Shown here: in pieces, positions 6,673-24,405 of the stretch | Numbering within the stretch: the stretch's first letter is position 1 | Layout of the letters: the number at the start of each line of letters is the position of its first letter | IMG/VR virus record: IMGVR_UViG_2623620496_000002 | Location: 1 to 26,571 of that record | Reading direction: 5' to 3' (one strand) | DNA length: 26,571 nt | Origin: a virus | Taxonomy: Duplodnaviria > Heunggongvirae > Uroviricota > Caudoviricetes | Position numbers and translations under genes: made by a program | The notes under the pieces: generated by a model | What the model was told of the DNA's origin: nothing | Seen by the model: only the letters and a program-made list of their open reading frames with translations | Database searches by the model: none

Positions 6673-7698
6673 TTACGCCAGTTGTACGGACACGAACGCA
6701 TCAGGGTCAGCCAGCAGCATCAGCGGTGCTGACTGAATCATGGTGAACTCACGCGCCGGATCGCCGGTGGTCACCCAGTTTTTCGGGTAGCGGGCAGAGG
6801 CGTTAATGCCTTCGCGCTGTGCGTCCGCATCCTGAATGCAGCCATAGGTGCGCAGACCACGTGCCTGAGTGTTCCCCAGCAACATCGTGTTGTCCGGCAG
6901 GAAGTTCTTTTTGACGTCGTTTTCCACGTACTGTCCGGAATACACGACGATCGCCATATCGCCATACATCCCCTTATAGGACACCGCTTCGCCCAGGTCT
7001 TTTACCGCTGTCTCCAGCTCGGAATGAGAGCCGCGACGGGTATCCAGCTTCTCCTTGACGGCTTTGAAGGAACGGAACAGCGCCCAGCCTTTCGGATCGA
7101 ACACGATGATATTCACCACACCGCTGGCGTTCAGCGCGTAGGCTTCGATATCGTCGGTCGGGTCATACGTGGACTTGTCACGCTTGCTCCACTCCGTGCC
7201 GCCGGACTGCGTGATGTTATTCGCCGCACTGCGGCCCATATCCACCTCAACCGGATCGAAGGCTTCACCGGTCATGGTGTATTTGCCTTTAAGCACGGCA
7301 GAAACGGCCTGCATCTCTTCGACCTGGGCAATGGCCAGCTCTTCGTCACGCATGTTCTGCATAATGATGCGACGGCGACGGTAAGCCGGGTCCGCCAGAT
7401 TCTGCGGATCTTCATCCGGCAGGCGACGCAGGGTCATCTGCGGATTCACTTCATGCTTCGGCTTGACATATCCCGGCGTAAATTCAGAGGTGGAGCCGCC
7501 ACGGGAACGGATAACCTCACCGGAAACAATCGGCGAAACGTACAGCGCCATGTTTACCAGTCCCGGAATTTGTGAGAGATAGACTTTCTCCGTGGTGAAG
7601 GGATAGCTCTCACGGAAAAAGAGACGCAGAAACAGCGGTTCAAACTTAAATTTCTGCTCATTTGCCGCCAGCAGCTGGGCGGTTGTGTACATCGACAT
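6673..7698 (-). CDS. E: major capsid protein gpE
   Basis: ORF 6673..7725 contains MSMYTTAQLLAANEQKFKF... to ...FVSVQLA, near-identical to recalled lambda gpE (341 aa); start placed at ATG 7696..7698. Confidence 0.95.
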   Translation of the reverse strand: MSMYTTAQLLAANEQKFKFEPLFLRLFFRESYPFTTEKVYLSQIPGLVNMALYVSPIVSGEVIRSRGGSTSEFTPGYVKPKHEVNPQMTLRRLPDEDPQNLADPAYRRRRIIMQNMRDEELAIAQVEEMQAVSAVLKGKYTMTGEAFDPVEVDMGRSAANNITQSGGTEWSKRDKSTYDPTDDIEAYALNASGVVNIIVFDPKGWALFRSFKAVKEKLDTRRGSHSELETAVKDLGEAVSYKGMYGDMAIVVYSGQYVENDVKKNFLPDNTMLLGNTQARGLRTYGCIQDADAQREGINASARYPKNWVTTGDPAREFTMIQSAPLMLLADPDAFVSVQLA

Positions 7699-7753
7699 AA
7701 AAAAATCCCGTAAAAAAAGCCGCACAGGCGGCCTTTAGTGATGAAGGGTAAAG

Positions 7754-8701: not shown

Positions 8702-9415
8702 CCGGGACTGCAGTGTCTCCCGGACGTCATCCGGAAGATGGCTGTAGGGGTTGCCATCCACCTTATGGCTGCCGCTGTAAATCAGCGTGATTTCCACACC
8801 CTGTTTCTCCAGCGCAGCACCGTAATTACTGTGAGCCATCATGACGCCGATGGAGCCTGTCCGGGCGGTCTGCGTGACCAGACGCCGGGAGGCAGCACTG
8901 GCAAGCAGCTGACCTGCACTGCAGTTCATGTCGTTGGCCAGCGCCCATACCGGTTTTATGTCACGCACACGGGCGATGATGTCAGCGCAGTCAAATGCTC
9001 CCGCCACCATTCCGCCTGGCGTGTCCATATCGAGCAGAATGCCGTCCACCATCGGATCGCTGGCAGCCTGTTGCAGACGGGCGATAATGCCGTTGTAACC
9101 GGTCATCCCCGAATACGGCTGCAGCGCCCGCGTCCGGCTGACCAGCGTGCCGGACACCGGCAGCACGGCGATGCCATTCATGACCTGATAACTGCGGGCC
9201 TGTCGTGGCCCGTCATCATCACCGGATAACGCCAGCGTCGCGGGTGACTCTCCGGCAGTCAGGCTGTCACCTGACACCGCATCCGTCAGGCGGCTTATCC
9301 CAAGCTGGCCTGCAAGCGCACAAAAGAAAACCCGCGCATAGGCGGGTTCAAGCATCAGCGGCTCATTAAAGGCCATGCTGGCAATATGCGGGAGATTACG
9401 CAGCTCTGCTGTCAC
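8096..9415 (-). CDS. C: capsid assembly protease gpC (GTG start)
   Basis: Long ORF 8096..9550; lambda-like C sequence begins at VTAELRNLPHIASMAFNEPLMLEPAYARVFF..., coded from GTG at 9413..9415. This gives 439 aa and a 20-nt overlap with the B stop, the same arrangement as recalled for lambda. Confidence 0.85.
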   Translation of the reverse strand: MTAELRNLPHIASMAFNEPLMLEPAYARVFFCALAGQLGISRLTDAVSGDSLTAGESPATLALSGDDDGPRQARSYQVMNGIAVLPVSGTLVSRTRALQPYSGMTGYNGIIARLQQAASDPMVDGILLDMDTPGGMVAGAFDCADIIARVRDIKPVWALANDMNCSAGQLLASAASRRLVTQTARTGSIGVMMAHSNYGAALEKQGVEITLIYSGSHKVDGNPYSHLPDDVRETLQSRMDATRQMFAQKVSAYTGLSVQAVLDTEAAVYSGQEAIDAGLADELVNSTDAITVMRDALDARKSRLSGGRMTKETQSTTVSATASQADVTDMVPATEGENASAAQPDVNAQITAAVAAENSRIMGILNCEEAHGREEQARVLAETPGMTVETARRILAAAPQSAQARSDTALDRLMQGAPAPLAAGNPASDAVNDLLNTPV

Positions 9416-10169
9416 TCTTCTCCTCCTCTGTTGATTGTCGCAGTCCGGATTCAAATGCCGCAGCCGCCCAGGCTGGCGGTTTAAGACCGGCTGCGCGGCG
9501 CTCCATCGTTTCACGGACCTGCTGGGCAAAAATTTCCTGATAGTCGTCACCGCGTTTTGCGCACTCTTTCTCGTAGGTACTCAATCCGGCTTCTATCAGC
9601 ATCACCGCTTCCTGAACTTCTTTCAGACCATCGATGGCCATACGACCGGAGCCTATCCAGTCGCAGTTCCCCCAGGCACTGCGTGCTTCCTGAAAGCTGA
9701 AGCGCGCTTTTGAAGGTAACGTCACCACGCGGCGAACGATGGCCTCTTCCAGCCAGCACAGAAACATCTGGCTCGCCTGACGGGATGCGACGAATTTTCG
9801 CCGCCCCATAAAGTGCGCCCACGACTCGTTCGCGCTGGCCCGTGCCGTGGAGTAGCTCATCTGGGCGTAATTCCGGGAAAGCTGCTCATACGAGACACCC
9901 AGCCCGGCAGCGATATACCGCAGCAGTGACTGCTCAAACACGGAGTAGCCGTTATCCGTGTCCTGAGCCGTCTGCAGGTTCAGTGAGTCACCCGGCATCA
10001 GGTGCGGTACTTTTGCGCCTCCCAGCCGGACCGGCGCTGCGGCGTAATACGCGGCAATTTCACCAATCCAGCCGGTCAGCCTTTCCCGCTGCTCCTGACT
10101 GTTCGCGCCCAGAATAAAATCCATCGCTGACTGCGTATCCAGCTCACTCTCAATGGTGGCGGCATACAT
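9396..10169 (-). CDS. B: portal protein gpB, C-terminal segment (gene split by inserted element)
   Basis: 257 aa ORF MYAATIESELDTQSAMDFILGANSQEQRERLTGWIGEIAAYYAAAP...EEEKSDSRAA corresponds to the C-terminal part of recalled lambda gpB (about residues 277-533); lambda-like sequence stops abruptly at 10175. Confidence 0.9.
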   Translation of the reverse strand: MYAATIESELDTQSAMDFILGANSQEQRERLTGWIGEIAAYYAAAPVRLGGAKVPHLMPGDSLNLQTAQDTDNGYSVFEQSLLRYIAAGLGVSYEQLSRNYAQMSYSTARASANESWAHFMGRRKFVASRQASQMFLCWLEEAIVRRVVTLPSKARFSFQEARSAWGNCDWIGSGRMAIDGLKEVQEAVMLIEAGLSTYEKECAKRGDDYQEIFAQQVRETMERRAAGLKPPAWAAAAFESGLRQSTEEEKSDSRAA

Positions 10170-10175: not shown

Positions 10176-10250
10176 TATGAAAAGACAGGAAAAAATAAAA
10201 TTTAAAAACAGTACATTACGAATGCTCAGACCTATCGTTTAAAGGAGTCG

Positions 10251-10271
10251 CAATACACACTGCAATACACG
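10251..10271. repeat. two direct copies of GCAATACAC near the left end of the element (candidate integrase or regulator binding sites)
   Basis: GCAATACAC at 10251..10259 and 10263..10271; the same motif occurs three times at the right end (20386..20438). Confidence 0.5.
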
Positions 10272-10612
10272 ATTATTTATAAGATGAGCGGCATCCGTCA
10301 TAAAGCTGGTGGATGCTTTTTCTATGCATATATGCACAGTTTTAGTGGGCGTTAATGTCGATATAGGGATCCCCATATCGAGATTGGATACCTGGCTTTT
10401 TTCCGGTTAACCTTTAATCAGGCTGGTGGGCTTTACCTGTTTTGTATGAGTGGTCATCATGACCATGTCATAACAAAAACCCCATATTCGTGGTTTTTCT
10501 GTGTCGGGCTATTCTGTCGTTGCTGTGCTGATTTGGCTGGTGGGCTGAATCATCATTACGGCGATGCAGCTATGTAGACGTTCCGGCCTCCTCAAATTGA
10601 GGATTGTGGAAG

Positions 10613-10720
10613 AATCAATGGGTTAGTCTTACTTTCCCGACATCCCCCAATGGGGGTTTTCGAAACAATCAATAGCTTAGGCTTACTTCCCCGATTTCCT
10701 GCATTGCAGGTTTTCGAAAT
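10613..10720 (+). repeat. tandem ~54-bp repeat units, each with a GC hairpin followed by TTTTCGAAA (candidate small RNA or terminator elements)
   Basis: Unit A 10613..10666 and unit B 10667..10720 both start AATCAAT and end GGTTTTCGAAA. Hairpins CCCCCAATGGGGG (10644..10656) and CCTGCATTGCAGG (10699..10711) differ by paired changes that keep the stem. A third partial unit and further hairpins follow at 10721..10828. Confidence 0.6.
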
Positions 10721-10984
10721 AATCAATGGGTTAGGCCATCGTGCAATTTTGCACTTTGCCAGCCAGCGCAATGTCGCGTTATCAGTCCTCAGATGTGAGG
10801 GATGTAGCCAGCTTTTCCCCCAGTGGGGGATATCCAGCACCGACGGCTTAACTGTGCGTGCCAGCACAAGGTAGCCTTGAACTACTTACTGCATCCCATC
10901 TTACAGGCCGTGCCTTCCTGCTTAACTTTTTGCAATGCAACAAGTCAGCCAGCGCAATTTTGCGTTATCGGGAATATCAGCAAG

Positions 10985-11266
10985 TTACCGCCGCAATCGT
11001 TCCGGCTTCTTCCACTGGTAAGTATTTTTCGCGCTCTCCCTCCGTTGTTGAGAACGGCGACGATATGCCAGCAACTCAAGGACTCTTGTTCGTATGTTGC
11101 GCATATCCACGCCGTTAAGCTCAATACCGTCACGGCGCATCACCTCAGCCACTACACGCACATAATTATCTGCGGTCACGCTGTCCGGCTGCGTGGCCTG
11201 TTCGTCATGCTGCTTGCTGATTCCACAAGCACGGCGGATTAATCGCAGTATTTCGGATTCAGTCAT
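10985..11266 (-). CDS. hypothetical protein (93 aa) downstream of satellite small-terminase homolog
   Basis: ORF MTESEILRLIRRACGISKQHDEQ... directly downstream of the TerS-like gene; no recognisable motif; weak RBS. Confidence 0.45.
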   Translation of the reverse strand: MTESEILRLIRRACGISKQHDEQATQPDSVTADNYVRVVAEVMRRDGIELNGVDMRNIRTRVLELLAYRRRSQQRRESAKNTYQWKKPERLRR

Positions 11267-11277
11267 AGCGTACTACG

Positions 11278-11820
11278 TTACTTATCTTTATTCGGCTGCA
11301 ACTTATCCGGTACGTTTCCGGCAGTTTCCATCAGATAATCGGACAGCATCAGCGGTATGTTTTCGTCAAGTTTTGCGCATGCGTTACGGGCTCTGATAAC
11401 TTCTTTTTTCAGTCCATCCAGCATAGACGGCTTCATGTCGGGAAACTTCCTTGTCATGGCAAGCGGCAGGCTGTCCATGATTGAAGAAATCTGACTCGCT
11501 AGTTTTGAAATCGCGTAGATGCAAAACTTTGTATCAATCACCTCGCCGCGTTCGCGCTCGTTTTTAAGTTCCTGCGCTTCCGCCTGGGCCGTCATTAATC
11601 TGATTCTTACGCGTAAAAGTTCATCATCATCAATCTCGCCTTTGTCGTCTGTAATCTGGTTAATTGCATTGCTAACCCGATTGTCTATTACGCTGGCAAC
11701 ATCATAAAACGCCTCGCGGCCTTTACGTTCAACGGGAGTCACTCCCCACTTGTCGAACGCTGTCGCACTTACACGGCAGCTTTGCGCCATGTTTTTTTTG
11801 TTCATCAGGTGCGATTTCAT
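11278..11820 (-). CDS. terminase small subunit homolog (Nu1-like; candidate packaging-redirection protein)
   Basis: C-terminal half aligns with the prophage Nu1 in this same window (LMTAQAEAQELKNERERGEVIDTKFCIYAISKLASQISSIMDSLPLAMTRKFPDM versus LTRAQADAQELKNARDSAEVVETAFCTFVLSRIAGEIASILDGIPLSVQRRFPEL); N-terminal region divergent. Start taken at ATG 11818..11820 (MKSHLMNKK) with GGGG RBS; the track ORF begins at an upstream GTG. Confidence 0.8.
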   Translation of the reverse strand: MKSHLMNKKNMAQSCRVSATAFDKWGVTPVERKGREAFYDVASVIDNRVSNAINQITDDKGEIDDDELLRVRIRLMTAQAEAQELKNERERGEVIDTKFCIYAISKLASQISSIMDSLPLAMTRKFPDMKPSMLDGLKKEVIRARNACAKLDENIPLMLSDYLMETAGNVPDKLQPNKDK

Positions 11821-11932
11821 CAATATCCCCACTTAAGTAATGTTTCAGGTTGGTGTATTGGCTTTATCTTTTCCTTTTTATTCATAGAGATAGAGCGAAC
11901 AACAAAACCACCACCAGCACCCGAAAAAGGCT

Positions 11933-11996
11933 CATAAATAGCGAAAACCCGCGAGGTCGCCGCCCCGTAGCCTACCGGATCGCCGGAAAGGACCCG
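11933..11996. other. satellite cos site (cohesive-end region AGGTCGCCGCCC at 11954..11965)
   Basis: CATAAATAGCGAAAACCCGCG-AGGTCGCCGCCC-CGTAGCCTACCGGATCGCCGGAAAGGACCCG closely matches the prophage cos block at 24198..24261 except inside the 12-nt core; the core is the reverse complement of the recalled lambda cohesive end GGGCGGCGACCT. Lies just upstream of the TerS-like gene, as cos lies upstream of Nu1. Confidence 0.75.
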
Positions 11997-12021
11997 CCAG
12001 CCAGAACGGGCCCTAATTTCA

Positions 12022-12405
12022 TCAACCAATCAACTTATAGCGACCATCCCGTGCATTGCGACGTACACGCTCAATCTTGAGGCATAGCGCCGCATCTGGC
12101 TTTTTTGGGACAGGTACGCGGCAATATTCAGAAGATCGAGGAATATTGTTTATCCAGTCGATCACTTCACTTAAATACCAGGCCTTACGCCCTTCCGTAA
12201 CCTGTACGCGTTCGGGGAACTCTCCGCGAGCCTCAAGGTTTAGCAATGTGCGACGGCTAAGGGTAGTAAGTTCCATCACCTGATTCATATCAACAAGGCG
12301 TTCACTTAAACGCATTTTGTCAGCAATAGCCTTTAATTCCTCTACTGCTGGATCCGGATACATCATTTCGGCAATTGGCTTAAGGTCATTGTAATGATTC
12401 TGCAT
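12022..12405 (-). CDS. putative AlpA/MerR-like helix-turn-helix DNA-binding protein
   Basis: Segment MELTTLSRRTLLNLEARGEFPERVQVTEGRKAWYLSEVIDWI resembles AlpA-family HTH; start placed at ATG 12403..12405 (MQNHYNDL) preceded by AAAGGGGGA RBS; the track ORF starts at an upstream TTG. Confidence 0.6.
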   Translation of the reverse strand: MQNHYNDLKPIAEMMYPDPAVEELKAIADKMRLSERLVDMNQVMELTTLSRRTLLNLEARGEFPERVQVTEGRKAWYLSEVIDWINNIPRSSEYCRVPVPKKPDAALCLKIERVRRNARDGRYKLIG

Positions 12406-12416
12406 TGTATCCCCCT

Positions 12417-12758
12417 TTACACACAAGCCAGCGGCTGAACAGAAATACCTGAGCCAACAAACGCGGCAACCTTTGCCGACAGTTCTTTTACAGACTCAGG
12501 CCAGTTCAGAGCATCAACATTTAAAACACCTGTCTTATAAACCTGTGCCTGTGTTTTTTTCGCTGTGTCGATTTGTACAGCGGAAACATAAACCGCTTTA
12601 CCTACGCTCGAACCATCCCATACCACCAGTGCACCTGTTGCATCTTCCTGCATCAGTGGCGTAAATGCAGGAATTACCCCTTTATTAGCTGAAAATATCC
12701 CCAGCGTAGTCACCAGTGCTTCAGTGCCAGCCATGAGTTCAGTGTAATGAGTAGCCAT
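12417..12758 (-). CDS. head decoration protein homolog (gpD-like) encoded by the satellite
   Basis: 113 aa; central region GALVVWDGSSVGKAVYVSAVQID...VYKTGVLNVDALNWPE parallels prophage gp[24 protein letters not shown]...[16 protein letters not shown]; strong RBS GGGGGAG before the ATG. Confidence 0.75.
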   Translation of the reverse strand: MATHYTELMAGTEALVTTLGIFSANKGVIPAFTPLMQEDATGALVVWDGSSVGKAVYVSAVQIDTAKKTQAQVYKTGVLNVDALNWPESVKELSAKVAAFVGSGISVQPLACV

Positions 12759-12767
12759 TGCTCCCCC

Positions 12768-13808
12768 TTAGCCAATGCGAACGGTAACAAAACGATTGAT
12801 GCGGGCCGGTATTGGCTGTGGTGCTGAATGTGTCTGCACATATTCAATAGCCGGATCACCAGGCACAATATAGTTTTTCGGTGCAAGTTCGGCTTTAGTC
12901 AGCCCCATTCGGATTAGCTCCGGATCCTGAATACCGCCATAGGCGACAATCCCCTGAAGAGCCGTATTGCCAAGCACCATCAAATCAGGATCAAGGAAAT
13001 GTTTTTCTGTTCCGTCCTCGTCGGTATAACGCCCGCTGTAAACAACAATCGCAACATCGCCCATATACCCTTTAAAACTCACCGAATCACCAAGGTCTTT
13101 AAGGGCCGTTTCCAGTTCGGAATTAGAACCACGACGGGTATCCAAAGCCTCTTTTATCGCTCTGAATGAACGGTATTTCTTCCATACATTACCACCCATA
13201 ATGATGATATTAGTGACGCCCTCACTAAATTCTGCGTAGCTCTCAATATCATCATTTGGATCAAAAGTTTCTTTATCCTTACCTGACCACTCAGTACCGC
13301 CAGACTGAGTGATGATATTTTGTGGTTTTATATTCCAGTCCAGCTCATAACGTTCAATACCATCGCCCTCAATGATATTTTTCCCCGTTGTGATTGCCTG
13401 AACAGCAAGCCATTCAATACGTGCACGAATAGCTTTAGCCTGATTTACAATCGCCTGTTTAACTTTAATATTACGCGCCCCAAAAGCATTGTATTGCTCA
13501 GGTGACACACCAGCAGGGCGCACAGCTAACTTATTTGGATCAATGCTGCTTTTCGGCTTCATATAACCTGGACGAATTGTTTTTGATTCGTATCCCTCAT
13601 CTCGTGAAACTTTACTGCCCACCATAGGAGAGCAAAACGCCGCGATCGGGATATTTGGATCGTCGATCGTATCAAGAATAATGTCTCTCGATTCAAACAT
13701 TACCGAGCGAGTGAAAAACAAACTGGTAAACAACGCATTTAATTTTTTTTGCACATCTTCAGCATTAGCCACCTGCACAAGCTGTGTAGGCGAATATAAA
13801 TCAACCAT
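12768..13808 (-). CDS. major capsid protein homolog (gpE-like) encoded by the satellite
   Basis: Aligns along its length with the prophage gpE in this window (for example QSGGTEWSGKDKETFDPNDDIESYA versus QSGGTEWSKRDKSTYDPTDDIEAYA; RSFRAIKEALDTRRGSNSELETALKDLG versus RSFKAVKEKLDTRRGSHSELETAVKDLG). Start placed at ATG 13806..13808 (MVDLYSPTQLVQVA, aligning to gpE MSMYTTAQLLAANE) with AAAGAGGA RBS; the upstream extension in the ORF track is rejected. Confidence 0.85.
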   Translation of the reverse strand: MVDLYSPTQLVQVANAEDVQKKLNALFTSLFFTRSVMFESRDIILDTIDDPNIPIAAFCSPMVGSKVSRDEGYESKTIRPGYMKPKSSIDPNKLAVRPAGVSPEQYNAFGARNIKVKQAIVNQAKAIRARIEWLAVQAITTGKNIIEGDGIERYELDWNIKPQNIITQSGGTEWSGKDKETFDPNDDIESYAEFSEGVTNIIIMGGNVWKKYRSFRAIKEALDTRRGSNSELETALKDLGDSVSFKGYMGDVAIVVYSGRYTDEDGTEKHFLDPDLMVLGNTALQGIVAYGGIQDPELIRMGLTKAELAPKNYIVPGDPAIEYVQTHSAPQPIPARINRFVTVRIG

Positions 13809-13982
13809 ACGCATCCTCTTTGCATTCATTAAAAATAATTGTGGATATATGCTATCACCGATATTTGTCATGCGAATACATGCAACCGAGTGCAATGTTG
13901 TATAAAGTTTTGGGATAACAACTTCAGCGCGGATAATTAGTGTTAATATCTTCACTCCCTTTGGTCGGGATTTATGTAGCAT

Positions 13983-14014
13983 GCCGGAAAATTTATTTTT
14001 TTCCGGCCTTTTTT
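13983..14014 (+). terminator. rho-independent terminator-like hairpin between ssb and capsid-homolog genes
   Basis: GCCGGAAAA-TTTATTT-TTTTCCGGC (9-bp stem, 13983..14007) followed by CTTTTTT on the plus strand and flanked by an A-run on the other side; may act bidirectionally. Confidence 0.45.
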
Positions 14015-14025
14015 ATTGGCAATAT

Positions 14026-14475
14026 TTAAAACGGAATATCATCTCCCCATTGCTCATTTTCTCCCACTGGTGGATGGCTTCCTTGCTGATCTGCCTGTTG
14101 TTTTGCTCTGTTCAGTGCGTCAGTAGCCTGACCCTGTTGACCTTTTTTGCCGCCCGGTCGCACCGTTCGCGCACTGATTACGCTGTCTGCGATAACCTGC
14201 CAGCCCTGCCGCGTTTCACCGTTCTGGCCTGTCCACTGTCTTACCTGCATGTTACCCGCCACGCTCACCAGTTCGCCTTTGTGGTGTTTTGCCAGTGCGT
14301 CGGCCTGTCTGCCAAACGCCAGGACGGATAACCACATCGTCGCCGTTCCGTCATCTGCCTGGCTGCACGGAAGGGGGACCGCCATACTAGCCATCGTCAT
14401 TTGTGTACCCTTGCTGGTGGTCTTTAACTGCGGGTCAGCCACCAGCCGCCCGTAAGCCGCTATCTGTGCTGTCAT
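14026..14475 (-). CDS. ssb: single-stranded DNA-binding protein
   Basis: 149 aa, glycine/glutamine-rich linker and acidic C-terminal tail ending DDIPF, the characteristic SSB tip. Confidence 0.85.
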   Translation of the reverse strand: MTAQIAAYGRLVADPQLKTTSKGTQMTMASMAVPLPCSQADDGTATMWLSVLAFGRQADALAKHHKGELVSVAGNMQVRQWTGQNGETRQGWQVIADSVISARTVRPGGKKGQQGQATDALNRAKQQADQQGSHPPVGENEQWGDDIPF

Positions 14476-14723
14476 GCTGTCTGCTCTCCAGTTTTAACGT
14501 TGATGGTTGTCACCTGTTCCGCTTCGGCAATCTCCCGTTCTGTCAGCGTGGCAAAGTTTGCCGCCGTCGTGGTCATGAATGCGCTTATCAGTTCGGGGTG
14601 TGCTTTCGCGTATCCTTCCCCAGCGTGGCGGTCTATCGTTCTGATTGCCACCTTTAAGGCGTGCTCTGTCATGTCTAACGCTTTATATTTTGGCGCTGTC
14701 TTATCTCTGGTTTTTCTGGTCAT
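14472..14723 (-). CDS. hypothetical protein (83 aa)
   Basis: ORF between the iteron cluster and ssb; stop overlaps the ssb start; no recognisable motif. Confidence 0.5.
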   Translation of the reverse strand: MTRKTRDKTAPKYKALDMTEHALKVAIRTIDRHAGEGYAKAHPELISAFMTTTAANFATLTEREIAEAEQVTTINVKTGEQTA

Positions 14724-14732
14724 TCCTCACTG

Positions 14733-14926
14733 CTCCCCACTTTTACTACCCACTTTTTGAAATTACCCAACGTCTCCCCACTTCTTTTTTTTGTGATTCT
14801 AACGTGATGTTTTTCAATGTGTTTTTTATTCCCCACTTTTTGGGGTATATACAGGTGGGAAAGTGGGGAATCACGTTTCAATTTTGTTAAATTCCCCACA
14901 CTCCCCACTTTTACTACCCACTTTTT
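14733..14926. repeat. iteron cluster, putative satellite replication origin
   Basis: Perfect 26-bp direct repeat CTCCCCACTTTTACTACCCACTTTTT at 14733..14758 and 14901..14926, plus additional CCCCAC(T)TTT copies (14774, 14831, 14893) and an inverted copy AAGTGGGG (14861..14868), immediately downstream of the replicase gene. Confidence 0.65.
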
Positions 14927-16340
14927 ACAGTGGGCGCACGTCATCACCGTCAATAGCAATAACGCCATCACCTTCCAGCTTGTACAGCCAGCGCCGGAAG
15001 TGTTTCATCTCATACCCCAGCTTTTTCATATCATCGCGCAACAACGGAATAGTGCATTTATCTCCGCGCTGTGTGCGTGAACGGATACAGCCCCATAGCG
15101 CGGCATGATTCTCCGTCTTGTTCCCGGCTTCCTCGATGCGCTCCAGTTCAACGGGTGGGCGCGGCTTATCCACAACAACCAGCGACGTGATTAACTCCCC
15201 GTCAGTGTCGGTAAAAAGCTCCACCACACGTAAATCGTATGCGGCCTCTTTCAGTTCCTCCGCGTCCTTCATTTTTGTGCAGGAGATAACCAGGGCTTCA
15301 CTGTCTGCACCTTCACGGCGAATACGGTATTCAGCGTCCAGAGATGCACGAAATGCACTGGAACCACGCGCCCCCTTTGTTTCATCCTTGCCGGAATGGT
15401 GAACCACCAGCACCGTGGCCCCTGTGCGGCGTTTCAGTTCGTCACATCCACGGATAAACGCCCCCATATCCCGCGCGTCATTTTCATCATTACCGCCAAA
15501 GCAACGCGCCAGCGTATCAAGAATAATCATGCGTACCGGTTTACCCGTTTCCCGTTCAACCTGGCGGGAAGCGATGACCATTTCATCAACATCAAGCGGG
15601 ACTGCCGGAAAAATCGGGCGGTTTACCAGGTACAGATTTTCCACCCGTTCATCATTAACGATTTCCCATGCCTTGATACGGCGGGGGACACCAATGCCAC
15701 CTTCACCGACAACATACATCACCGAACCATGCGCCACCCTGCGGCCTCCCCAGTGACGGCCAGTGGCAACATGACACGCCCAGGAACACGCGAGGAACGA
15801 TTTATAGGAACCGCTCGCGCCGTATGTGCTGCACAATGAATTAGCCGGAATCACGCCCTTAACGACATAATCAAGCTGTGTGTCGTACCCTGCAGATCCA
15901 ATGCTCATTGGTAGCGTGGTTTTTCGCTGGCTGTATTGCTCGTCAGTAAGTATTTCCCCGCGCTCTGCCTGTTCGCGGATCCGTTGCAGGTAGTCGTGCC
16001 AGTTCTCCAGCTTCTGGCTGTGCATTCCATCAGGGTAATAATTCGCATCCCGTACACCTGCCGCCGCCAGCTTTTGCCCGATAGCATTAATATTTGACGG
16101 CTTGATGTGGCCTGCCTTGTACAGCCGGACACAATAGCGACCATCGTCGATAATTTTCAGGTCTGCCAGTTCGTCAAGCTGGCTGTCTCCCAGCCATACA
16201 GGCGGGACGTTATCACCAGCAAGTCGCCCGTCCTGTTCCTGCCACTGTTTCGCGTGCGCCCAGGCATCACTACCCGCAAAAATAATGACTTCGGTCATTT
16301 TGTCGTGTGGCTGTTTTTTTAAGTTCGGTGCCAGTTTCAT
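14925..16340 (-). CDS. replication initiation protein (primase/helicase-like, RecA-like ATPase domain)
   Basis: 471 aa; Walker A-like YGASGSYKSF and Walker B-like RMIILDTLARCF, then VLVVHHSGKDETKGARGSSAF typical of RepA/DnaB-like ATPases; start overlaps upstream ORF stop (ATGA). Confidence 0.8.
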   Translation of the reverse strand: MKLAPNLKKQPHDKMTEVIIFAGSDAWAHAKQWQEQDGRLAGDNVPPVWLGDSQLDELADLKIIDDGRYCVRLYKAGHIKPSNINAIGQKLAAAGVRDANYYPDGMHSQKLENWHDYLQRIREQAERGEILTDEQYSQRKTTLPMSIGSAGYDTQLDYVVKGVIPANSLCSTYGASGSYKSFLACSWACHVATGRHWGGRRVAHGSVMYVVGEGGIGVPRRIKAWEIVNDERVENLYLVNRPIFPAVPLDVDEMVIASRQVERETGKPVRMIILDTLARCFGGNDENDARDMGAFIRGCDELKRRTGATVLVVHHSGKDETKGARGSSAFRASLDAEYRIRREGADSEALVISCTKMKDAEELKEAAYDLRVVELFTDTDGELITSLVVVDKPRPPVELERIEEAGNKTENHAALWGCIRSRTQRGDKCTIPLLRDDMKKLGYEMKHFRRWLYKLEGDGVIAIDGDDVRPL

Positions 16341-16636
16341 TTTTTGCCCCTGAATGCGTTAATCATGTTTTTCATTTTCTGAATATTTGCCCGTGCCTTT
16401 GCGTTGCTGGTGGGCTGTTTGCGTGGTGTGGCCTGTATCAGTGAAAAATCACGCCGGAACTGATAAGCAGGCATCACGCAGTCATAGCCGTACCCATCAC
16501 GGCGGTAAGTAACGCACCGCCCCGCCACGCTTTTAATCGTTACCGTGCCACCGTAGTTATCCCGGAAAATATCGCCGGGGCGGATTTCAGGCCGAGGGAG
16601 ACCACTGGCAGTAAAGCCAGAATTTTTCTGTTTCAT
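16337..16636 (-). CDS. hypothetical protein (99 aa)
   Basis: ORF whose stop overlaps the replicase start, suggesting translational coupling; no recognisable motif. Confidence 0.55.
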   Translation of the reverse strand: MKQKNSGFTASGLPRPEIRPGDIFRDNYGGTVTIKSVAGRCVTYRRDGYGYDCVMPAYQFRRDFSLIQATPRKQPTSNAKARANIQKMKNMINAFRGKK

Positions 16637-16642
16637 GTTTTT

Positions 16643-16861
16643 TTACTCCAGAGGCAGATTTTTAGCGGCGAGTTCAATATCAGATGTCAGAGAAACCTGT
16701 GTATTTGCCAGGTCTAACAACAAAGAAATAAGAATTTCCTCTCTGCTATCGGATTCATCGGTGCTAAGGCTGTTCATCCACATATTGACGACTTCCCTGA
16801 TTTTTTTCGCAGAGTGCAGGGCTTCAAATGCCAGGTCTTCAATATCATGTTTATTTCGCAT
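16643..16861 (-). CDS. hypothetical protein (start uncertain)
   Basis: Track ORF 16643..16927; internal ATG at 16859..16861 (MRNKHDIE) chosen to limit overlap with the upstream gene. Confidence 0.4.
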   Translation of the reverse strand: MRNKHDIEDLAFEALHSAKKIREVVNMWMNSLSTDESDSREEILISLLLDLANTQVSLTSDIELAAKNLPLE

Positions 16862-17063
16862 AATCGCCCCCGCGTAACTGGTCTGCACTAACACCCGATT
16901 TAGTGAGCATTTCAGAAAATCCCGCAAGAGTGCTGATAAATTCGTTTTCCATTAAACGGCACTGGCATTTAACCCGGCCTTTTTCCAGATACACCAGTAC
17001 GCGCCACGTATAATCTGACGGCACATTCAGCACTACAGATAAGTGCGCTTCATTATTATTCAT
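16851..17063 (-). CDS. hypothetical protein (70 aa)
   Basis: Compact ORF in the small-gene cluster between the regulatory region and the replicase. Confidence 0.45.
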   Translation of the reverse strand: MNNNEAHLSVVLNVPSDYTWRVLVYLEKGRVKCQCRLMENEFISTLAGFSEMLTKSGVSADQLRGGDYAK

Positions 17064-17292
17064 GGCTCACCACCTCCATATCAGCCATGATAATTTTGCT
17101 GGCCTCATTCAGTGCCATATCAGCACTAAGTTGCATTACAGCCAGTGAATGAGGAACGAAAGCCCCGGCATATTCTGTTTCACTGGTAGCGTGCTTATGC
17201 GCCCTGTCCGCGATAACAGAAATATCAATCAGCGCATCAATCAGTGTTTTGATTGCTTCGGCGGCTGCGTCCGGACGGGTGTTATTGCACAT
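17056..17292 (-). CDS. hypothetical protein (78 aa)
   Basis: Compact ORF overlapping neighbours by a few nt, same orientation as the cluster. Confidence 0.45.
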   Translation of the reverse strand: MCNNTRPDAAAEAIKTLIDALIDISVIADRAHKHATSETEYAGAFVPHSLAVMQLSADMALNEASKIIMADMEVVSHE

Positions 17293-17488
17293 GGTGCACC
17301 CCCTGACGAATACGGGCGGCGAATACCATCACGCAGCCAGCCGGTGATTGCTGACGGGCTTCCTGTTCGCTGGTGGCCTCAATGGTAATCACGCGCGGTT
17401 GTGCCGTACTCAGGGCGATAAAACGCCAGATGTATTTATTCAGGTTGTGCGAGCCCCGCCCTTGCGGGTGTGTGGTATGATTTCTCAT
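17282..17488 (-). CDS. hypothetical small protein (68 aa), possibly Icd-like
   Basis: C-terminal 68 codons of track ORF 17282..18274, starting ATG 17486..17488 (MRNHTTHPQGRG...); first gene downstream of the divergent operator region. The Icd-like label is a weak recollection, not verified. Confidence 0.4.
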   Translation of the reverse strand: MRNHTTHPQGRGSHNLNKYIWRFIALSTAQPRVITIEATSEQEARQQSPAGCVMVFAARIRQGVHHVQ

Positions 17489-17585
17489 AGCTACCTCGAT
17501 ACTGTTGCTATCGTTGGTGGTTAGAAGCCCGGTTAGTGTTAGCGCACTGCCGGGTTTCGTCGTTTCTGCACCTTGCACCAACAAG

Positions 17586-17637
17586 GTGTTGAACACCAAT
17601 TTAAACCCAGGTGTTGAACACGTCAAGTGTTGAACAC
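17586..17637. promoter_or_regulatory. three copies of palindromic operator GTGTTGAACAC in a divergent promoter region
   Basis: GTGTTGAACAC at 17586..17596, 17611..17621 and 17627..17637, between the minus-strand start at 17488 and the plus-strand start at 17688. Confidence 0.6.
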
Positions 17638-17687
17638 TTGTTTTTTTTCCTGCATACTGCATTTGTTTTTTGTGAGGGGTACACAAC

Positions 17688-17867
17688 ATGGCGACAAAAG
17701 CAGTAAACGCAAAATCACAAACAGTTGCGGCAAGGGTTCCGCATGAAGTTATGAACAATGTTGAGGCGGTAAAAATGCCTGGTGAAAGTACAGGGCAGTT
17801 TGTAACAGCAGCATTAAAGCGAGAAGTTGAATACCGCCAGCGACGCAAGGCTAAAGAGCAAGAATAA
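17688..17867 (+). CDS. putative ribbon-helix-helix type small DNA-binding regulator (59 aa)
   Basis: ATG 17688 preceded by GAGGGG RBS; translation MATKAVNAKSQTVAARVPHEVMNNVEAVKMPGESTGQFVTAALKREVEYRQRRKAKEQE; below the 60-aa cutoff of the ORF track; directly downstream of the operator repeats. Confidence 0.55.
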   Translation: MATKAVNAKSQTVAARVPHEVMNNVEAVKMPGESTGQFVTAALKREVEYRQRRKAKEQE

Positions 17868-17924
17868 TCACTATCAGCGCTGTGGTGTGAGGTACTCCGG
17901 CGCATTGCTTTACAGGTCGGCACT

Positions 17925-18134
17925 ATGAGCAAAAAATACCTATCCACTGAAGAGATTTTCGCAGAACAACGAAGATTGCTTTTACAGAGCATTGTTGCAC
18001 GCCAGAAAGAAAAGGCACACGCTAAACAAATGCCACCAAATACAGAACCAGCGCCTACAAAATTTGCGCTTGATGAGTTTCTCAATAAACAGCCCCGGGT
18101 AATGAAAGCTAACAGGAACCGCCCACCAGGCTGA
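17925..18134 (+). CDS. hypothetical protein (69 aa), second gene of plus-strand regulatory operon
   Basis: ORF MSKKYLSTEEIFAEQRRLLLQSIVARQKEKAH... between the RHH gene and the plus-strand terminator. Confidence 0.5.
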   Translation: MSKKYLSTEEIFAEQRRLLLQSIVARQKEKAHAKQMPPNTEPAPTKFALDEFLNKQPRVMKANRNRPPG

Positions 18135-18200
18135 TCACATTGCCCACCAGCCGCAAATGTGGCATTGTTGGTGATGCTTTTGTTTTCCCTTGTTCCCACT

Positions 18201-18229
18201 GGCGACCCTTTTGCGGTCGCCTTTGTTTT
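18201..18229 (+). terminator. rho-independent terminator
   Basis: GGCGACC-CTTTTGC-GGTCGCC stem-loop (18201..18221) followed by TTTGTTTTG. Confidence 0.6.
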
Positions 18230-18230
18230 G

Positions 18231-18809
18231 TCACTGAATGCGGTTACCAAAGTAAAACTCAGGCTGATATTCACGTATCAGCGTTTTTTCTTCTTCCTCC
18301 AGCTCACGCTTTTTGCGCTTACATGCCTGTAGCTCCCTCCCCTTCTCGCTGGCACTTATTTGATATTGCTCTTTACGGCGGGAAAAATCCTGTAATGCAC
18401 CCCACGGGATACCATAAGCCCCCGTTTTTCTGATACCCGGTATCACATTTCTGAATACCCAGTTACTGAAACGATGAGCAAATGTGCCAGGCGTCGTTGC
18501 TTTGCGGCTGCGGGCTATTAGTTTGTAGAAACCTGACTCAGAGATAATTCTCATATTCTGATTTCCTCCTGGGGTGTAAGTTAAATTTACTCCCTTTTCA
18601 TCATCATCAAGCATCTGCAACGCCGTACGCGAATTGGTTAGTTCCAGCACAGCACAAACATCTTTTGCAACAAACCACGGATCGCCGTTCAGATACACCA
18701 CACGAACGTTCACACTATCAAAGCGCAGAACGACGAGATCACGAATATCGCAGAATTTTTTCACTGGACGAGCGTACCCCTTGCCCGTCACGGCAATATT
18801 TTTATTCAT
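18231..18809 (-). CDS. Bro-N domain protein (phage antirepressor-like)
   Basis: N-terminal VRVVYLNGDPWFVAKDVCAVLELTNSRTALQMLDDDEKG matches the Bro-N motif; C-terminal part charged and coiled-coil-like. Confidence 0.75.
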   Translation of the reverse strand: MNKNIAVTGKGYARPVKKFCDIRDLVVLRFDSVNVRVVYLNGDPWFVAKDVCAVLELTNSRTALQMLDDDEKGVNLTYTPGGNQNMRIISESGFYKLIARSRKATTPGTFAHRFSNWVFRNVIPGIRKTGAYGIPWGALQDFSRRKEQYQISASEKGRELQACKRKKRELEEEEKTLIREYQPEFYFGNRIQ

Positions 18810-18865
18810 CGCGTTTTTACCTTATAGACAAAAAACCCCTCGTGATGAGGGGCATTATTTACTGG

Positions 18866-19123
18866 TTATTGCTGTTTTGTTTTTCCAGGTTTCCATCCAG
18901 GATGCCACTCACCACGGATCCATGCCTGAACCTCTGAAAGTCGATACCCTGCAGCACGTTCACCGATCTTGATACGTCGCGGGAATTTACCTGCCTGCTC
19001 CATTTTCCAGCGTGTTGAGTTTGCCAGCGTGGTAAGTGCTATGCACTCTTTTTCACGAATGAACCGATCAATGTCCTTCATTGTGCGCAAATCGTTTTCA
19101 TCAACAAGAGAATAAATTGCCAT
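18866..19123 (-). CDS. alpA: AlpA-family transcriptional regulator / excisionase-like protein
   Basis: 85 aa, HTH segment with WKMEQAGKFPRRIKIGERAAGYRLSEVQAWI typical of AlpA; immediately downstream of the integrase gene. Confidence 0.85.
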   Translation of the reverse strand: MAIYSLVDENDLRTMKDIDRFIREKECIALTTLANSTRWKMEQAGKFPRRIKIGERAAGYRLSEVQAWIRGEWHPGWKPGKTKQQ

Positions 19124-19124
19124 A

Positions 19125-20366
19125 TCACACCACCTCTTTATTAAGCTCGATAACGTTGTTGTTAAATCCTGCTATCGTATTAAGGTAATTAACCCATATA
19201 TTAAGCACCTCAAGTTTTTTCTTTATATGCCTGCTTTTATTGTAAACACCAGCAACCCCTTTCACTTTATGACCTAAAAGAAGTTCGACAATATAAGGAT
19301 CCGCCCCCATATCATTAAGCGTAGTGGAAAATGTGCGCCTGAAATCATGTATGCACCACAAGCCATTAGTATCATGACCAAGACGCCTGCATATTCTGTT
19401 TGCAGCCCCTGTTATTGTCGCCCTTTGCAAAGCACAACCGACAACATAACCGCGATTTTTTGTTTCTGCGTAAAGATTAACGATCCATTGTTTTATTCCG
19501 TCAGGAACAGGCCTTACTATAGCCTCCTTGTTTTTGCTGTGCTCTTTTGGGACTGTCCATACCCAGTTTTTTAAATCCCATTCGTCCCAGGTGGATAGCC
19601 TCGCCTCCTGCTGTCGGCAACCAAACACCAGGCAGATAACCATTATTCTTCGGTTATATATTGATGACAGAGTTAGCAAATTATTACCGTAAGCATAAGA
19701 CCATACATCAGCGGTTTCATTGATATTAAGAACGCGATCCCTTATACCGGATGAGCGCCCGACATAACTTACGTTAATATCTCCAAAGGGATCGCACGCG
19801 ATGTATTGCCTGACGCGACAAAAACGCAACGCCTGTTTGATATCAAGAAAAATTGCACCAGACATAACAGGCGCATTTTTTTTGATCCTGTCAAAGACGG
19901 TAAGCCATGTGTGTAATTTGCACTGTTCTATAGCCATATCACCGATATAGGGGAAGATATGCTTTTCAAATCGTTTTATTAAATATTCATGCTCTTTTCT
20001 GGCTGTTGTGGCGTGATTGTCGTACCAGTAAAACAGCGCATCCCTTACGGTCACTGGTTGCATAGTTTTTTCGGCAGCAAGTTTTATTTGCCTGCGGGGG
20101 TCCAGATTTTCAGCCAGCCATTCACGGCACTGATCACGCATGCGCCTGGCCGTTGCAAGAGACATGTCAGGATAGCGACCAAGTGTAAGCCATACCGGAG
20201 GGGATTCCCTGCCACCAAGACGATAGTAAAAAACAAAGCTGATCCCCCCAACCATGCTTACACGCACAGACAACCCGCGCCCATCCGCTATTGTTTTTTG
20301 TTTGTCCTGCCGTTTTCCGACAAGACTCTTTAACAGTTTGTCACTGAGTTTGTTTTCAATAGCCAT
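19125..20366 (-). CDS. int: tyrosine-type site-specific integrase (P4-like)
   Basis: 413 aa; N-terminal arm-binding-like region, C-terminal catalytic residues HDFRRTF...LLGHKVKGVAGVYNKS with the conserved tyrosine. Confidence 0.95.
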   Translation of the reverse strand: MAIENKLSDKLLKSLVGKRQDKQKTIADGRGLSVRVSMVGGISFVFYYRLGGRESPPVWLTLGRYPDMSLATARRMRDQCREWLAENLDPRRQIKLAAEKTMQPVTVRDALFYWYDNHATTARKEHEYLIKRFEKHIFPYIGDMAIEQCKLHTWLTVFDRIKKNAPVMSGAIFLDIKQALRFCRVRQYIACDPFGDINVSYVGRSSGIRDRVLNINETADVWSYAYGNNLLTLSSIYNRRIMVICLVFGCRQQEARLSTWDEWDLKNWVWTVPKEHSKNKEAIVRPVPDGIKQWIVNLYAETKNRGYVVGCALQRATITGAANRICRRLGHDTNGLWCIHDFRRTFSTTLNDMGADPYIVELLLGHKVKGVAGVYNKSRHIKKKLEVLNIWVNYLNTIAGFNNNVIELNKEVV

Positions 20367-20385
20367 TAAAAGCCCTCAAGAGATT

Positions 20386-20438
20386 TGCAATACACACCCA
20401 TCCCGATCGCCAATTTGCAATACACATTGCAATACACA
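20386..20438. repeat. three direct copies of TGCAATACACA upstream of int (candidate arm-type or regulatory sites)
   Basis: TGCAATACACA at 20386..20396, 20416..20426 and 20428..20438; same core as the left-end copies at 10251..10271. Confidence 0.55.
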
Positions 20439-20514
20439 AAACCGCGAAAAACTGGAAGGGTGATGAACGGTCATCAAAAGCATGGAAAACGACATTCCAG
20501 ACGCAGCAAGGGTT

Positions 20515-23495
<2,981 letters not shown>

Positions 23496-24041: not shown

Positions 24042-24197
24042 TGTTCATTCCACGGACAAAAACAGAGAAAGGAAACGACAGAGGCCAAAAAGCCCGTTTT
24101 CAGCACCTGTCGTTTCCTTTCTTTTCAGGGGGTGTTTTAAATAAAAACATTAAGTTACGGCGAAGAAGAACGGAAACGCCTTAAACCGGAAAATTTT

Positions 24198-24261
24198 CAT
24201 AAATAGCGAAAACCCGCGCGCCTTCCGCCCCGTAACGCTCCGGATCGCCGGAAAGGACCCG
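24198..24261. other. prophage cos region (cohesive-end core at 24219..24230 differs from the canonical lambda-type core)
   Basis: CATAAATAGCGAAAACCCGCG-CGCCTTCCGCCC-CGTAACGCTCCGGATCGCCGGAAAGGACCCG, upstream of Nu1; flanks match the recalled lambda cos region but the 12-nt core reads CGCCTTCCGCCC rather than AGGTCGCCGCCC. Confidence 0.7.
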
Positions 24262-24405
24262 AAAATGATAATACATATCAATTACACTTAGAGGGGGGGT
24301 AATTTGTTCACATCAACACTCCGGACCCAATGGCCTTCTACTCTGGTTTTGCCATAAAATAGTCCTGATACATATTCATATCAGTTAGTCATATACGGAA
24401 AAAAT

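Follow-up and report, generated by a model that had tools for sequence, protein, structure and literature searches.

The window examined here, the whole 26,571-nt stretch of IMG/VR virus record IMGVR_UViG_2623620496_000002 (positions 1 to 26,571), is a lambdoid prophage carrying an E. coli phage satellite of about 10 kb, and this account concerns a small control module inside the satellite. On the minus strand the module begins with a gene for a 68-aa Icd-like protein, the first cistron of the early (replication) operon. On the plus strand are a gene for a 59-aa protein of the YlcI/YnfO family, a second small gene and an intrinsic terminator. The space between the two divergent reading frames is occupied by a predicted antisense RNA of about 78 nt, by three copies of the repeat GTGTTGAACAC, here called O1, O2 and O3, and by two divergent promoters, P(-) and P(+) (Table 1). 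It seems rather probable that the module is a two-layer control region of the early operon of a phage-inducible chromosomal island (PICI), one layer being a ribbon-helix-helix (RHH) repressor and the other an antisense RNA. The parts and how far they are conserved, the RHH fold, the correspondence between operators and protein strand and the structure and strand of the RNA come from sequence and comparison, and from these we infer binding, repression, a translational block and a route of release.

Both of the facing genes had been proposed in a first-pass annotation made from the sequence alone. The start it gave for the minus-strand gene, 17488, is that of the RefSeq coding sequence in identical DNA, and the product scores 69.8 bits against NCBIfam model NF033153 (cut-off 25); it is not a match to SymE. 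The 59-codon gene at 17688 is likewise annotated by RefSeq and its product belongs to the YlcI/YnfO family, with 59.7 bits against NCBIfam model NF041551 (cut-off 30). A 330-codon minus-strand reading frame covering 17282-18274 had been regarded as probably spurious upstream of the ATG at 17488. This was correct, because the stretch concerned is occupied by plus-strand genes, by promoters and by a conserved plus-strand RNA.

The suggestion that the 59-aa protein is RHH-like is also supported. An AlphaFold2 (AF2) model of the monomer has a predicted local distance difference test (pLDDT) value of 85.5 and consists of an extended segment followed by two helices. The turn between the helices, G32-E33-S34, is invariant in 48 sequences. 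A G-x-S/T turn between the helices is a feature of the RHH superfamily. N7 and S10 are also invariant and K9 and R16 are conserved in at least 90%, while residues 11-15 are variable. As modelled, the 59-aa protein adopts the RHH fold of the Arc/MetJ/CopG superfamily. It has almost nothing outside the RHH domain and no C-terminal toxin-binding extension.

Exact copies of GTGTTGAACAC are found at the three sites and nowhere else in the window. When one mismatch was allowed and both strands were searched, six matches were observed against 0.45 expected, and none of 100 shuffles reached six. Each copy is part of a longer, 13-nt unit, A(G/A)GTGTTGAACAC, and successive units are spaced by 25 and 16. 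The three copies had been placed correctly by the first-pass annotation, which called them palindromic. That description is true of the window's specificity type only, because the centre is asymmetric in most types. In most types O1 is also inverted relative to O2 and O3. The sites coincide with the core elements of the two promoters. For P(-), O2 lies inside the spacer, O3 just upstream and O1 over the predicted start of transcription, at about 17591. The edge of the P(-) -10 hexamer is at -90/-91 in 97 of 111 unique modules, and the sequence CGTCAA comes after O2 in nearly every variant listed. The hexamers of P(+) match the consensus at 8 of 12 positions and its -10 hexamer ends at -29/-30 in 67 of the 111 unique modules; the Shine-Dalgarno (SD) sequence of the RHH gene, GAGGGG, is at 17674-17679. 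In the window type O3 covers the -35 of P(+), whereas in most other types it covers the -10/+1 region. Binding of the RHH protein to these sites should repress both P(-) and P(+). An inverted repeat, CACCTTG-N6-CAAGGTG, overlaps O1 and is present in many, though not all, operator types; it could form a 5' hairpin on the Icd-like mRNA or be a site for another protein.

Related loci were gathered using the Icd-like protein (10 loci) and the RHH protein (160 loci). Since these loci are related, the sequence counts given below are not counts of independent events. The order of elements is nearly universal: the Icd-like or another leading gene, a structured region, O1, O2 about 25 bp further on, CGTCAA, O3 and the RHH gene. 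Across the approximately 160 loci the sites have the form GTG-N5-CAC, and the five central bases vary between loci but change jointly at all the sites of one locus. At least 11 type-specific centres were found, each matched one-to-one with residues 11-15 of the predicted beta strand (Table 2). There are 17 combinations of strand and site in 14 strand types, and no centre is common to two strand types. RHH proteins with as little as 61-72% identity that retain the motif QT[IFL]AAR also retain GTGTTGAACAC or single-nucleotide variants of it (loci L063, L064, L142 and L143). In the protein, N7, K9, S10 and R16 would fit the invariant GTG/CAC flanks and residues 11-15 would fit the variable centre.

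Linkage alone does not account for the pairing of strand with centre, because the types of the neighbouring RNA hairpins are reassorted among the operator types. These hairpins lie nearer to the operators than the RHH codons do, and one type of hairpin 2 occurs with four strand types. The AlpA allele is also uncoupled from operator type. The shuffled-neighbour control and the cases of diverged protein address the kinship of the loci, though only in part. Given that the centres pair with strand residues, that the neighbouring DNA is shuffled and that the sites overlap the cores of both divergent promoters, the earlier reading of the repeats as operators is upheld, and their assignment as predicted operators of the 59-aa RHH protein is well supported by comparison. 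The covariation of residues 11-15 with the site centre is also indirect support for a dimer whose two-stranded sheet would enter the major groove.

A different reading would make the repeats the iterons of an origin of replication, or have them bound by AlpA or integrase, as short repeats are typical of origins and AlpA activates PICI genes (PMC6092414). However, in PICIs the origin is found downstream of the primase/helicase gene (PMC10111431, PMC6092414), the sites keep a fixed position with respect to the promoter hexamers and the ends of the island are marked by a different repeat, TGCAATACAC. That AlpA reads the repeats was rejected since its alleles are not matched to the site type, the centres following the RHH strand instead, and the iteron or origin reading was rejected on position and covariation. 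Either identity for the repeats would be extremely unlikely.

The antisense RNA was not among the elements listed in the first-pass annotation. An Rfam scan of 17200-18500 gave a single notable match, to SymR (RF01809) at 17489-17561 on the plus strand (32.9 bits, E 4.7e-4, gathering score 61). Sub-threshold matches of 28.7-36.7 bits were also obtained at the homologous place and on the same strand in five other loci from other genera. Since the score is below the gathering threshold, the RNA is not a member of the SymR family by the Rfam criterion, and nothing in the whole window was found at Rfam gathering thresholds. The RNA lies between the Icd-like start codon and O1. Its complement in the Icd-like mRNA runs from position -1 to about -78 and takes in the SD sequence (GAGG, the reverse complement of 17494-17497). 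An extended -10 promoter within the Icd-like codons puts the start of the RNA at about 17489, one base from the Icd-like start codon. All but five loci passed an extraction filter that required a TAnnnT hexamer at a matching distance from the RNA 5' end.

The plus strand of this region folds, with an energy of -39.5 kcal/mol (z -4.9), into a pair of hairpins and a U-rich tail. In an alignment of 32 sequences, 98.3% of the cells are paired and 8 of the 20 pairs show compensatory changes; these values were matched in none of 500 shuffles, and in slid controls pairing was about 40%. A covariance model built from the satellite RNAs alone recovers the symR gene of K-12 on the same strand (locus L012, 1333-1417 against the annotated 1336-1412) with 29.2 bits, and nothing else was found at E <=10 in 118 kb. 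These comparisons indicate that a SymR-like cis-antisense RNA covering the Icd-like ribosome-binding site is very probably made here.

The same segment, 17489-17566, might alternatively act on the mRNA strand as a leader, an attenuator or a processed same-strand immunity RNA like P1 C4 or P4 CI. RNAs of the C4/isrK type have been reported in some Gram-negative PICIs (PMC10111431), and the minus strand of the region does fold better than shuffled sequence (z -2.8). The plus strand, however, is more stable in all 83 unique variants, by about 13 kcal/mol on average (means of -36.4 and -23.1 kcal/mol), because pairs that are G-U on it would be A-C on the minus strand. It is also the plus strand that has the U tract and the -10 hexamer, and both covariance models match the plus strand only. 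No C4 or isrK immunity RNA was found at the gathering threshold in the window or at E <=5 in 17200-18500, and in the absence of any covariance-model match a C4/isrK identity was rejected. Action on the mRNA strand is considered very unlikely.

Stop and start codons overlap at every junction from the Icd-like gene to repA (17282/17292, 17056/17063, 16851/16861 and 16337/16340), which suggests that the operon 14925-17488 has chained translational coupling. Since these overlaps run from the Icd-like gene as far as the replication helicase, the switch-like role proposed in the first-pass annotation is plausible. In the first layer of the proposed mechanism, the 59-aa RHH protein made from P(+) would bind the three GTG-N5-CAC sites. 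As O2 is in the P(-) spacer and O1 is over the start, the bound protein should turn off the operon that leads from the Icd-like gene to RepA, and as O3 is on the -35 of P(+) the RHH protein should limit its own synthesis. In the second layer, a constitutive RNA of about 78 nt, transcribed from the extended -10 within the Icd-like codons, would pair with the leader and the ribosome-binding site and block translation of leaky Icd-like transcripts. Because stop and start codons overlap at all the junctions, such a block should spread along the operon by lost coupling and polarity. In the c4/icd/ant operon of P1 a block at the first cistron spreads downstream in this way, through loss of coupling and polarity. 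Release would most likely come from upstream transcription, either from alpA or from the helper late operon. Transcripts that read through the alpA terminator would cross the repressor operon in antisense and continue into the Icd-like operon, a route suggested because no minus-strand terminator was found between the Bro-N gene and the control module; a good minus-strand terminator follows alpA at 18853-18835. It has been proposed that Q-modified helper late transcription enters helper-embedded islands passively (PMC10111431).

Several results weigh against this two-layer scheme. No Pfam RHH model matches the 59-aa protein, and an RHH profile compared with PDB sequences gave noise only, with no match at E below 0.9. 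The SymR score is far under the Rfam gathering threshold (33 vs 61), and the U tract of the RNA is interrupted, thus termination may be partial. A tblastn search of 50,697 phage records with the Icd-like protein returned one satellite-like record and no P1 homologue, the PHROGs name for its family is 'transcriptional repressor' and its AF2 model is poor (pLDDT 64). Lastly, the induction of EcCICFT073, a PICI carrying the same module, has been explained through AlpA without any repressor (PMC6092414). Pfam gave nothing for the Icd-like protein, and since 'Icd-like' is a weak functional label the protein is not claimed to be a toxin.

A sensor like Stl of SaPIs would use the same parts in another way: a helper-phage protein would bind the RHH protein as master repressor directly and lift repression, and the module would be a sensor of helper induction. 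The geometry is akin to the divergent Stl/Rpr region of Gram-positive PICIs (PMC6092414), many specificity types would be expected from an arms race, and all of the repressor and operator results are compatible with a sensor. However, no helper partner was identified, the protein extends hardly at all beyond the RHH domain, and the diversity sits in the DNA-reading strand and not in a putative partner-binding surface. Overexpression of AlpA alone induces excision and replication of EcCICFT073, module included (PMC6092414). On balance a sensor of this kind is unlikely, and the combination of RHH repressor and antisense RNA remains the preferred interpretation. The interpretation given with the first-pass annotation is partly supported: it was largely right on the repressor and its operators, conjectural on the sensor role and incomplete in lacking the antisense RNA.

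Table 1. Positions of the features of the control module, of its neighbours in the satellite and of the corresponding module in EcCICFT073.
Feature	Position	Strand	Remarks
Icd-like gene, 68 aa, first cistron of early/replication operon	17282..17488	minus	RefSeq CDS in identical DNA
Extended -10 promoter TGgTATGAT of antisense RNA	17473..17481	plus	inside Icd-like codons 3-6
SymR-like cis-antisense RNA (predicted), ~78 nt	17489..17566	plus	hairpin 1 17489-17522; hairpin 2 (terminator) 17524-17558; U-rich tail
Inverted repeat CACCTTG-N6-CAAGGTG	17569..17588		overlaps O1; in many, not all, operator types
Operator O1 (predicted)	17586..17596		over predicted minus-strand transcript start; -102 from RHH ATG in nearly all loci
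Promoter P(-) of Icd-like operon	17598..17626	minus	-35 TTGACG 17626-17621; 17-nt spacer; -10 TAAATT 17603-17598
Operator O2 (predicted)	17611..17621		in P(-) spacer; -77 from RHH ATG
Operator O3 (predicted)	17627..17637		covers P(+) -35; -61 from RHH ATG in window type, -32 in others
Promoter P(+) of RHH operon	17630..17658	plus	-35 TTGAAC 17630-17635; 17-nt spacer; -10 CATACT 17653-17658
59-aa YlcI/YnfO-family RHH protein, predicted repressor	17688..17867	plus	RefSeq CDS in identical DNA
G+C-rich stem between RHH gene and second gene	17877..17903	plus	17877-17882 pairs with 17898-17903
Second small gene, 69 aa	17925..18134	plus	RefSeq hypothetical CDS; variable small-protein family
Intrinsic terminator of plus-strand operon	18201..18231	plus	stem 18201-18221 and T tract
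Bro-N protein	18231-18809	minus	
AlpA	18866-19123	minus	
Integrase	19125-20366	minus	
Four small genes after Icd-like gene		minus	three hypothetical ORFs and a DUF4222 gene
RepA-type helicase	14925-16340	minus	
SSB, major capsid protein, decoration protein, helix-turn-helix protein, small terminase		minus	
EcCICFT073 (L175) second small gene	20243-20416		
EcCICFT073 (L175) YlcI/YnfO gene	20474-20653		
EcCICFT073 (L175) antisense RNA (predicted)	20855-20773		76 bits; CFT073 NC_004431 1380772-1380854, opposite strand to Icd-like gene
EcCICFT073 (L175) Icd-like gene	20853-21053		

Table 2. Residues 11-15 of the predicted beta strand and the operator found with each.
Strand residues	Operator
QTVAA	GTGTTGAACAC
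QSVTA	GTGTCTTACAC
KKLEA	GTGTCAGCCAC
QALKA	GTGTGGCCCAC
KRIDA	GTGTCGGACAC
QMTTV	GTGAAATACAC
KQVNV	GTGAATAGCAC
QQIVS	GTGAATGCCAC
RQKTA	GTGACTCCCAC
KKIDV	GTGTCAGACAC
ATKKI	GTGCGGCCACAC

The second plus-strand reading frame of the first-pass annotation is a hypothetical gene in RefSeq and a member of a variable family of small proteins whose C-terminal motif reads FAL[DE]xFL.K.PR..K..NRPPG or ERFAPCAFALEQFLKEY. The 69-aa protein itself had no Pfam, NCBIfam or PHROG match. A similar reading frame was present in only about 16 of 150 loci; most other loci have in that position a different small reading frame, 58-61 nt after the RHH stop, and these reading frames have the C-terminal motif in common. 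Codon differences in the 69-aa gene are 11 synonymous and 13 non-synonymous, weak evidence of selection. The G+C-rich stem that separates these plus-strand genes is also seen in other types and is not followed by a T tract. The terminator predicted at 18201 is confirmed as the best terminator-like site in the region, with a 7-bp stem containing six G-C pairs. It acts on the plus strand only and adjoins the stop of the convergent Bro-N gene, and its hairpin recurs 3' of the RHH operon in several related loci.

An RHH gene followed by a second small gene might be read as a type II toxin-antitoxin or addiction pair, with operators that are autoregulatory only and do not control the Icd-like operon. 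Against this, the second gene is missing altogether in some loci (L003, L011 and L146), its product matches no toxin family, the RHH protein has no toxin-binding extension and two of the three sites are on the core of P(-) and not of P(+). An addiction pair is quite unlikely.

The leading gene is not constant. In H25 (NZ_OW967966.1, 3267227-3267457) a control region 93% identical to that of the window heads a gene for an 'ash family protein' instead of the Icd-like gene, an arrangement present in some E. coli genomes, and the cassette may therefore combine with different leading genes.

The satellite extends from about 10200 to 20450, between portal gene fragments at 9396-10169 and 20515-21396, with its main genes all on the minus strand. 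The insertion site is thus the portal gene of the helper, and the satellite has the same direction as the helper late genes. Identical DNA in E. coli CFSAN064035 carries a matching annotation of the satellite. Genes for integrase, AlpA, replication and capsid/packaging functions are co-oriented within a lambdoid late gene, as in Gram-negative and helper-embedded PICIs, and judged by this gene content the island is a helper-embedded PICI. The island itself is of a known kind, since helper-embedded PICIs with a matching layout were described by Tommasini, Mageeney and Williams (PMC10111431).

Clusters of two and three copies of TGCAATACAC occupy the left and right ends of the satellite (10246-10270 and 20385-20440); these are probably arm-type binding sites for integrase or AlpA near the attachment sites. 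The Rfam int-alpA RNA motif (RF02996) was above threshold in two related loci (L011, 264-329, and L002, 75-143) and was not found in the window by the Rfam scan. The helper cos region is duplicated in the satellite (11932-11997 against 24197-24262, 85% identity over 100 nt); the satellite copy contains the lambda cosN sequence AGGTCGCCGCCC and the helper copy differs within that core. Although CFSAN064035 is a close match, the window lacks the IS621 insertion that it has in the helper capsid gene (6673-7725). The two sequences part to the right of 24280, where CFSAN064035 has a YlcI/YnfO paralogue. This helper paralogue, a possible partner for cross-talk, is annotated in CFSAN064035 and is not in this window.

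The control region is widespread. At least 80% of the window type's control region is carried by 457 of 5426 complete E. coli genomes and part of it by 862, and about 1640 complete E. coli genomes match some part of a 1.2-kb query around the module. Induction of PICIs has been ascribed to the activator AlpA (PMC6092414), and a 2026 survey lists YlcI/YnfO and Icd-like genes as accessory genes only (PMC13612085). Searches of the open-access literature found no description of this module, of a repressor of EcCICFT073, of what YlcI/YnfO does or of any satellite RNA related to SymR. Neither RHH repressors nor cis-antisense control is new as a kind of regulation; their combination, the panel of specificities, the tie to SymR and the presence in a model PICI appear to be undescribed. 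The module is a concrete candidate for control within the model element EcCICFT073. It could explain how satellites stay quiet and why different types might coexist, and the one-to-one pairs of Table 2 are well suited as a data set on DNA reading by RHH proteins. A wider proposal, which we put forward tentatively and at somewhat less than even chances, is that many enterobacterial PICIs, EcCICFT073 included, are silenced by an immunity module in which an RHH repressor of at least 11 interchangeable DNA-specificity types acts together with an antisense RNA of the SymR family gating the first replication-operon gene, and that symE/symR of K-12 is a relative of this cassette in which LexA replaces the RHH protein.

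Among known satellites, EcCICFT073 and the helper-embedded PICIs have the same integrase and alpA genes, Bro zone, replication and capsid genes and cos site, inserted in a lambdoid late gene. EcCICFT073 has the same module in a different specificity type, with operators GTGTGGCCCAC. The RHH gene, operators and antisense RNA are not described in the papers on these elements (Fillol-Salom 2018; Tommasini 2023). The Stl/Rpr region of Gram-positive PICIs (SaPIs) is similar in having a divergent repressor gene between the integration and replication modules of a satellite (PMC6092414). It differs in that the repressor here is an RHH protein and not a large helix-turn-helix protein, in that an antisense RNA layer is added and in that Gram-negative PICIs have been described as lacking such a repressor.

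Omega of pSM19035 and Arc, CopG and AmrZ resemble the predicted repressor in fold, in having short repeated sites in direct or inverted orientation and in reading DNA with an N-terminal beta strand. Neither the GTG-N5-CAC form nor such a range of interchangeable specificity types has been described for them, and no sequence similarity of the 59-aa protein to Omega or other RHH repressors was detected in Pfam and PDB sequence searches.

Phage immunity regions offer another parallel. The immI region of P22 contains the RHH repressors Mnt and Arc, the sar antisense RNA and ant, and P1 has the c4 RNA, icd and ant. In immI a small RHH repressor has its operators at divergent promoters, and the gene that comes first under this control has its ribosome-binding site blocked by a small antisense RNA; in P1 this gene is icd, on whose translation downstream expression depends. 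The module would share with these systems an RHH repressor at divergent promoters and an antisense RNA over the first gene. However, no C4 sequence or model match and, by tblastn, no P1 Icd were found, and the satellite RNA is cis-encoded on the opposite strand and does not arise by processing of the same transcript. Further along the operon lie replication functions and not an antirepressor as in immI.

The antisense geometry of type I toxin-antitoxin systems is also present in the module, which is much like the SymE/SymR locus of K-12 (L012, 1000-1460). Both have a cis-antisense RNA of about 77 nt with two hairpins, which begins at or beside the start codon of its target, is transcribed from a promoter within the target's first codons and overlies the ribosome-binding site. 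In both, a repressor site of the target promoter lies just past the 3' end of the RNA, in K-12 a LexA box, and the covariance models show similarity in both directions. The satellite RNAs differ in scoring 29-37 bits against the Rfam threshold of 61. Their target is an Icd-like protein at the head of a long replication operon, whereas that in K-12 is the AbrB-fold SymE, and where K-12 uses LexA the satellite would use an RHH protein encoded on the island, with sites that are type-specific. The resemblance to SymR suggests that this antisense RNA, a textbook case from the chromosome, is one member of a broader family found on mobile elements.

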